A stretch of 338 nt of DNA from Escherichia coli (GTDB taxonomy: Bacteria; Pseudomonadota; Gammaproteobacteria; Enterobacterales; Enterobacteriaceae). Under the pieces are notes generated by a model. It made no database searches and was not told the origin of the DNA. It saw only the letters and a program-made list of their open reading frames with translations. The translations under genes and the position numbers were made by a program. The DNA is taken from the NCBI RefSeq assembly GCF_003334355.1, contig NZ_QOWP01000114.1. One strand, written 5' to 3'. This document shows, one piece after another, positions 1-338 of the stretch (position 1 is its first letter; each line of letters starts with the position of its first letter).

Positions 1-338
1 CTCAGCATGTGGCCGGATAACCGTATCGCCCGTGACGCGCACTATCTTTACCGGTATGACCGTCACGGCAGGCTGACAGAGAAAACCGACCTCATCCCGG
101 AAGGGGTTATCCGCACGGATGATGAGCGGACTCACCGGTACCATTACGACAGTCAGCACCGGCTGGTGCACTACACGCGGACACAATATGAAGAGCCGCT
201 GGTCGAAAGTCGCTATCTTTACGACCCGCTGGGCCGCAGGGTGGCAAAACGGGTATGGCGGCGTGAACGGGACCTGACGGGCTGGATGTCGCTGTCACGG
301 AAACCGCAAGTGACCTGGTACGGCTGGGACGGCGACCG
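1..338 (+). CDS. Rhs-family / YD-repeat protein, conserved core region; internal fragment, partial at both ends (frame 1, codons at 1..336)
   Basis: Seen in sequence: frame 1 on the + strand has no stop codon across the window (112 codons). Translation: [112 protein letters not shown]. It contains three YD repeats matching the Rhs consensus (RYxYDxxGRL). The stretch [15 protein letters not shown]...VTWYGWDGD matches, from memory, the C-terminal part of the conserved core of E. coli Rhs proteins. I cannot say which paralog (rhsA/B/C/D or other) this is, so no gene symbol is given. About 61% GC fits the known GC-rich composition of rhs cores. Confidence 0.9.
43..75 (+). repeat. YD repeat unit 1 (protein-level), encodes [11 protein letters not shown]
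   Basis: Frame-1 translation of 43..75 is [11 protein letters not shown], matching the Rhs/YD consensus xYxYDxxGRL. This is a periodic motif within the CDS, not a separate genetic element. Confidence 0.65.
136..165 (+). repeat. YD repeat unit 2 (protein-level), encodes [10 protein letters not shown]
   Basis: Frame-1 translation of 136..165 is [10 protein letters not shown], matching RYxYDxxGRL with His in place of Gly. Confidence 0.65.
211..240 (+). repeat. YD repeat unit 3 (protein-level), encodes [10 protein letters not shown]
   Basis: Frame-1 translation of 211..240 is [10 protein letters not shown], matching RYxYDxxGR(L). Spacing from the previous units is 25-30 codons, consistent with degenerate YD-repeat periodicity. 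Confidence 0.7.

Follow-up and report, generated by a model that had tools for sequence, protein, structure and literature searches.

A 338-nucleotide Escherichia coli stretch as an internal Rhs core fragment of a dispersed repeat found in front of different toxin tips

The stretch of DNA studied here (the window, 338 nt in total) is, with a probability of about 97% in our estimate, an internal piece of an Rhs core of the E. coli RhsA/B/C/F subfamily, which would encode cocoon wall and lies in a dispersed repeat that would provide homology for tip swaps, while its extent of 338 nt is most likely an artefact. Descriptions of E. coli Rhs cores go back to the 1980s, and it is established that they form a cocoon, undergo autoproteolysis and have their tips displaced. 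The content of the window is therefore already known: it is an ordinary E. coli Rhs core with nothing novel inside. This agrees with the original prediction, which had placed the informative parts of the locus outside of the window, and indeed the tips vary behind identical copies of it.

Identity and reading frame of the window

Frame +1 of the window is free of stop codons across 112 codons, and the remaining five frames contain one to nine stops each. In composition-matched shuffles frame 1 stays open in about 2% of the cases and at least one of the six frames in about 16%; therefore the open frame alone is weak evidence and the homology is decisive. The 112-aa translation matches the NCBIfam profile RHS_core (NF041261) in a colinear manner over profile positions 935-1046 of 1261, with an E-value of 2.3e-72 and 244 bits, a score which has to be read against the fact that the curated cut-off of this profile (2000 bits) applies to the whole protein and that a fragment of 112 aa is too short to reach it. 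With the shorter profile TIGR01643 (YD_repeat_2x) the translation scores 29.8 bits and lies above the curated cut-off of 15.8, and the Pfam profile RHS_repeat (PF05593) matches the fragment weakly (best i-E 0.016). On the DNA level, the window is identical to annotated Rhs core genes in many complete E. coli genomes, and each of the 30 records listed shows 100% identity along the full 338 nt. The assignment to an Rhs core made in the original prediction is thus confirmed, with no observation speaking against it, and so is the expectation that a protein search with the 112-aa translation would find Rhs and YD-repeat families. The reading of the open frame as a chance ORF in GC-rich DNA, for which the shuffles would have left some room, is ruled out by the RHS_core match together with the complete DNA identity to annotated genes in thousands of genomes.

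The base composition fits as well. With 60.7% GC and a GC3 of 71% the window is typical of the GC-rich Rhs core, and it sides with the cores (61-63% GC) in the contrast between these and the AT-rich tips (37-41% GC). The translation contains three full motifs of the type Yx[YF]D..G/H.[RL] and the beginning of a fourth one. The features of the window are the following:

1-338, + strand: Rhs core coding fragment, internal and open at both ends, in frame 1; equals codons 921-1032 of K-12 RhsA/RhsB/RhsC
49-75, + strand: YD-repeat motif 1, YRYDRHGRL (aa 17-25), by motif reading; aa 16-30 match Pfam RHS_repeat weakly
139-165, + strand: YD-repeat motif 2, YHYDSQHRL (aa 47-55); best TIGR01643 stretch at aa 38-61, Pfam RHS_repeat at aa 44-61
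214-240, + strand: YD-repeat motif 3, YLYDPLGRR (aa 72-80); Pfam RHS_repeat at aa 70-82
316-338, + strand: first part of a fourth motif of the YD type (WYGWDGD...), truncated where the window stops and continued by RLTTIQ... in genomic copies
107-298, - strand: antisense ORF of 63 codons beginning with GTG, regarded as a chance product of the GC-rich frame on the sense strand

It could be asked whether the window has a second function in addition to its coding role, either as an internal promoter for the expression of toxin tip and immunity gene or as an antisense gene. We regard this as very improbable. For Salmonella and EHEC rhs genes, promoters have been documented which lie within the ORF, 5' of the autoprotease site (PMC7043789; PMC7618764), and an antisense ORF is indeed present. 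However, a crude consensus scan, which a weak promoter could escape, detects no sigma-70-like and no terminator-like site on either strand of the window, and a search against Rfam up to E 1 remains empty. An ORF of this kind is to be expected opposite a frame with such a high GC3, and the antisense ORF was rejected as a gene; it has no promoter-like site, and none of the genome records inspected carries an annotated feature on the antisense strand. The repeats within the window comprise only direct repeats of 10-15 nt and weak inverted repeats, and the direct repeats (D1-D3) are present because YD codons recur.

Position of the window within the Rhs protein

In K-12 RhsA, RhsB and RhsC the core-end motif PxxxxDPxGL (aa 1238-1247) begins 613 nt beyond the end of the window. 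The full-length proteins reach 2644-2684 bits with the RHS_core profile, clearly above the cut-off given above, and residues 1170-1247 are assigned to Rhs_assc_core (TIGR03696). According to Pfam, a full-length K-12 Rhs protein carries DUF6531 (46-123) and RHS (PF03527, 1143-1179) with many RHS_repeat matches between them. As predicted for the downstream continuation of frame 1, the genomic copies run into a PxxxxDPxGL-type motif at this distance, which is followed by an AT-rich tip of 130-168 aa and a small gene.

Among proteins of known structure, the 112 aa match Tse5 of P. aeruginosa (8cp6, residues 864-940, E 1.2e-7), the shell region of the S. bongori Rhs protein (8qjb/c/d, E about 1e-4) and Rhs1 of P. 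laumondii (7q97, residues 1070-1139, E 5e-3). For the last one, the barrel is formed by residues 420-1262 and the aspartyl-protease plug by residues 1263-1357, with the toxin inside the cavity (PMC8636562). In all these solved T6SS Rhs effectors the aligned region is the C-terminal part of the YD-repeat barrel wall, before the plug, although they are distant in sequence (E 1e-7 to 5e-3). Judged from these alignments, the window probably encodes a late part of the barrel in the wall of the beta-cocoon, with the autoprotease plug following after about 140 residues. Its roughly three and a half YD repeats would form beta-hairpins and thereby the last part of the cocoon wall around the C-terminal toxin, and the PxxxxDPxGL motif of the aspartyl autoprotease plug would, on the basis of homology and literature, mark the point at which the toxin tip is cleaved.

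Copies in E. coli genomes and K-12 paralogs

A megablast search of 5426 complete E. coli genomes finds matches to the window in 3882 of them, at 14268 places in total, with a median of four and a maximum of eight places per genome. In 2731 records the identity of the best place amounts to 99% or more. The K-12 MG1655 genome contains the following copies:

rhsA: 337/338 nt identical to the window
rhsB: 337/338 nt identical to the window
rhsC: 335/338 nt identical to the window
orphan ybfO: 331/338 nt identical to the window
rhsD: 271/338 nt identical to the window

RhsA (b3593) and RhsB (b3482) share with the window all 112 of 112 aa, the reading frame and the distance to the core-end motif, and differ from it by a single synonymous base at position 255 (A instead of G). 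The three differing bases of RhsC (b0700) include one amino-acid change, E64A. RhsD (b0497) is also colinear, has the same architecture and carries the core-end motif at the same distance, but its nucleotide identity to the window is only 80% and 16 amino acids differ. The window thus lies outside the RhsD/E subfamily. Its DNA is part of a dispersed repeat of 3.7 kb which is nearly identical among the paralogs.

Chromosomal sites and toxin tips behind identical copies

Exact copies (338/338) were placed by locus in finished genomes, where they occur at four chromosomal sites:

rhsC site: neighbours ybfA / kdp (loci L001 and L014)
rhsA site: neighbours yibF / selAB (loci L002 and L015)
rhsB site: neighbour nikR (locus L003)
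rhsF site: neighbours rpmE / priA (loci L012 and L013)

Behind these exact copies the following tips are encoded:

RhsA-type tip: Ntox34 (PF15606)
RhsB-type tip: DUF4329
RhsC-type tip: without Pfam match
RhsF-type tip: divergent DUF4329
ybfO-type tip: without Pfam match

The small genes located 3' of the tips behind identical copies in finished genomes are yibA, yhhH, ybfB, dsORF-f3 or ybfC. Because identical DNA precedes five different tips, a count which refers to finished genomes only, the window gives no information on the toxin. It had been stated beforehand that the window cannot reveal which pair of toxin and immunity gene is present, and this holds true. The proposal to extend the sequence by 1-2 kb downstream was right with respect to the distance, since motif and tip are encoded within this range, but it has no single answer: the 338 nt are a multi-copy repeat, and therefore no unique downstream extension exists.

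The rhs genes at three of these loci (L001 6241-10435, L003 6228-10476 and L002 7618-10374), which belong to three finished stool isolates from Bangladesh or India, carry annotations as pseudogenes with a frameshift or a truncated N-terminus. Frame 1 of L001, for example, ends at a stop 81 codons past the window copy. These pseudogene calls may reflect real decay or sequencing errors in the repeat.

Metagenome contigs were scanned with an allele-specific 70-mer. This yielded 65 contigs, 25 of which contain the exact 338 nt, and they add tips of the VDINL type, which is common, and of the Ntox16 and HExxH types. The VDINL-type tip (VDINLYPESDLIHSVADEINIPGVFTIGGHGTP...) comprises 162 aa, has no Pfam match and is found about 640 nt past exact copies of the window in L017, L023, L028, L040, L048, L069 and others. 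A related ADMNF tip is encoded on contig L052; on the same contig, an rhs gene (41-1673) is apparently interrupted about 376 codons in and followed by an IS-like ORF. The Ntox16 tip is found on contig L024, and the HExxH tip, which shows a weak Peptidase_M91 match, on L080. The 65 contigs also yield many combinations of site and tip. These were set aside as unreliable, because short-read contigs across a multi-copy repeat of 3.7 kb can be chimeric.

Linkage to the T6SS

The original prediction also mentioned, in general terms, that Rhs loci are often linked to T6SS components (vgrG, PAAR, hcp). This is not borne out here: no vgrG, hcp or separate PAAR gene is present within 6-9 kb upstream at any inspected locus, nor on the metagenome contigs having upstream sequence. 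Instead, the upstream neighbours at the inspected rhs loci are housekeeping genes, namely yibF-selAB, nikR/nikA-E, ybfA-kdp, rpmE-priA and ybbP. In this respect the E. coli loci differ from the solved T6SS Rhs effectors, in which the N-terminus is a full PAAR or prePAAR and a vgrG or chaperone gene is located next to the effector gene; at the inspected E. coli loci neither vgrG nor a chaperone gene is adjacent.

The N-terminus of K-12 RhsA (L004 4184-4300) begins with MSGKPAARQGDMTQYGGSIVQGSAGVRIG and contains a literal PAAR (MSGKPAARQGD), in resemblance to a single PAAR repeat. With an E-value limit of 10, Pfam detects no PAAR domain in residues 1-1200 of K-12 RhsA, and the N-terminus may be vestigial or minimal PAAR-like. 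Since an adjacent T6SS gene and a Pfam PAAR match are both missing, T6SS delivery of the E. coli RhsA/B/C/F subfamily is suggested by analogy to other Rhs proteins.

Extent of the window

Four contigs of NCBI draft assemblies (L008-L011), each 338 or 340 nt in total, encode exactly the same 112-aa product, whereby the exact-product look-up by construction returns only contigs which are cut at the window coordinates. On the DNA level they deviate from the window in 2-7 positions, and therefore they come from other strains. Among 73 copies with flanking sequence, common polymorphism outside the window is first met at -3 (6/73) on one side and at +339 (11/73) on the other. The contigs of 340 nt span -2 to 338 and are thus exactly bracketed by these two variable sites. 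Those of 338 nt begin 2 nt inside the -3 site; as no polymorphism at -1 or -2 is seen in the sample of 73 copies, the left boundary is accounted for to within 2 nt.

Independent assemblies hence break at the same points, as is the case for a de Bruijn-graph unitig common to paralogs. Because its ends are bracketed by paralog-variable sites, the window is most likely a collapsed-repeat contig, which we infer to be complete, and its extent of 338 nt has then no biological meaning. In general, short GC-rich YD-repeat windows which match E. coli Rhs cores with 100% identity should be taken as short-read debris of collapsed repeats that can not be extended unambiguously. The biological weight of the window itself is little.

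Such debris of Rhs cores is occasionally deposited as "phage" or "plasmid". It should be filtered out, or be resolved by long reads if the toxin repertoire is of interest. Two records illustrate this. OR845342.1 (L081), labelled "UNVERIFIED_ORG Escherichia phage", consists of 3258 nt of which 3177 nt are Rhs core DNA with 98% identity to K-12 rhsA, and NZ_CP069827.1 (L082), a linear "Klebsiella pneumoniae plasmid unnamed6" of 2340 nt, contains 2338 nt of Rhs core DNA with 96% identity to K-12 rhsA. Both are likely to be misclassified repeat contigs or contamination. A plasmid or phage origin of the window was considered and rejected: the sole matches of this kind are 95-99% identical and are found in mislabelled chromosomes or in tiny unannotated records made up entirely of Rhs core.

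It is conceivable, at slightly less than even odds, that the source genome links one of the collapsed copies to a toxin tip of unknown activity, e.g. of the RhsC, ybfO or VDINL type, which are without Pfam match. If so, the window would be all that is visible of a locus which deserves to be resolved. Even then the window itself would add nothing new, and public genomes already contain such tip sequences.

Orphan cassettes and recombination

The orphan ybfO of K-12 lacks the N-terminal part of about 900 codons and keeps the last 1 kb or so of the core, including the window region. K-12 rhsC and ybfO have 1047 nt in common at 96.8% identity, from 66 nt before the window start to the core end, and the two copies of this shared segment are 1871 nt apart. 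The window DNA accordingly falls within the 3' core segment of about 1 kb which is retained by silent orphan tip cassettes. Being part of both this segment and the 3.7-kb repeat, it would therefore belong to the homology that allows tip swaps and chromosome rearrangement.

An arrangement of this kind is found at the rhsC site of E. coli ECONIH4 (L014 6241-11006), where a full-length core is joined to the ybfO tip, which is the same as in K-12 in 152 of 152 aa. ECONIH4 has ybfC directly behind the gene with the ybfO tip and lacks the RhsC tip and ybfB that K-12 (L006 2584-9220) contains. This is compatible with a deletion by recombination between main gene and orphan across the shared segment of about 1047 nt, the direction and mechanism of which are putative. 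The arrangement matches the recombination between rhs-main and orphan in Salmonella, which was shown experimentally over 522 bp of 95% identity (PMC3967940), and also the C-terminal displacement model that was proposed for enterobacterial rhs genes (PMC2935791).

The retention of the window region by orphans raises the question whether the window itself might stem from a silent, N-terminally truncated core-tip cassette of the ybfO type located downstream of a main rhs gene. Both the K-12 ybfO and the orphan of L001 (330/338 nt identical) include this region, and the homology of orphans to the core begins no more than about 66 nt before the window. Nevertheless we consider such an origin unlikely, because the orphans encountered show 7-8 differences to the window, while the 100% copies inspected in finished genomes are all located in full-length genes. 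Moreover, if the window is a collapsed-repeat contig, full-length and orphan copies may both be represented by it at once. The preferred reading thus remains that of an internal core piece of the RhsA/B/C/F subfamily.

The K-12 orphan cassette also shows a variant of the core-end motif, PVQYIDSMGL, in which DSMGL replaces DPxGL with a serine in place of the proline. Cassettes of the ybfO type with this variant are found in K-12 (L006 from 7215 on) and also in L014.
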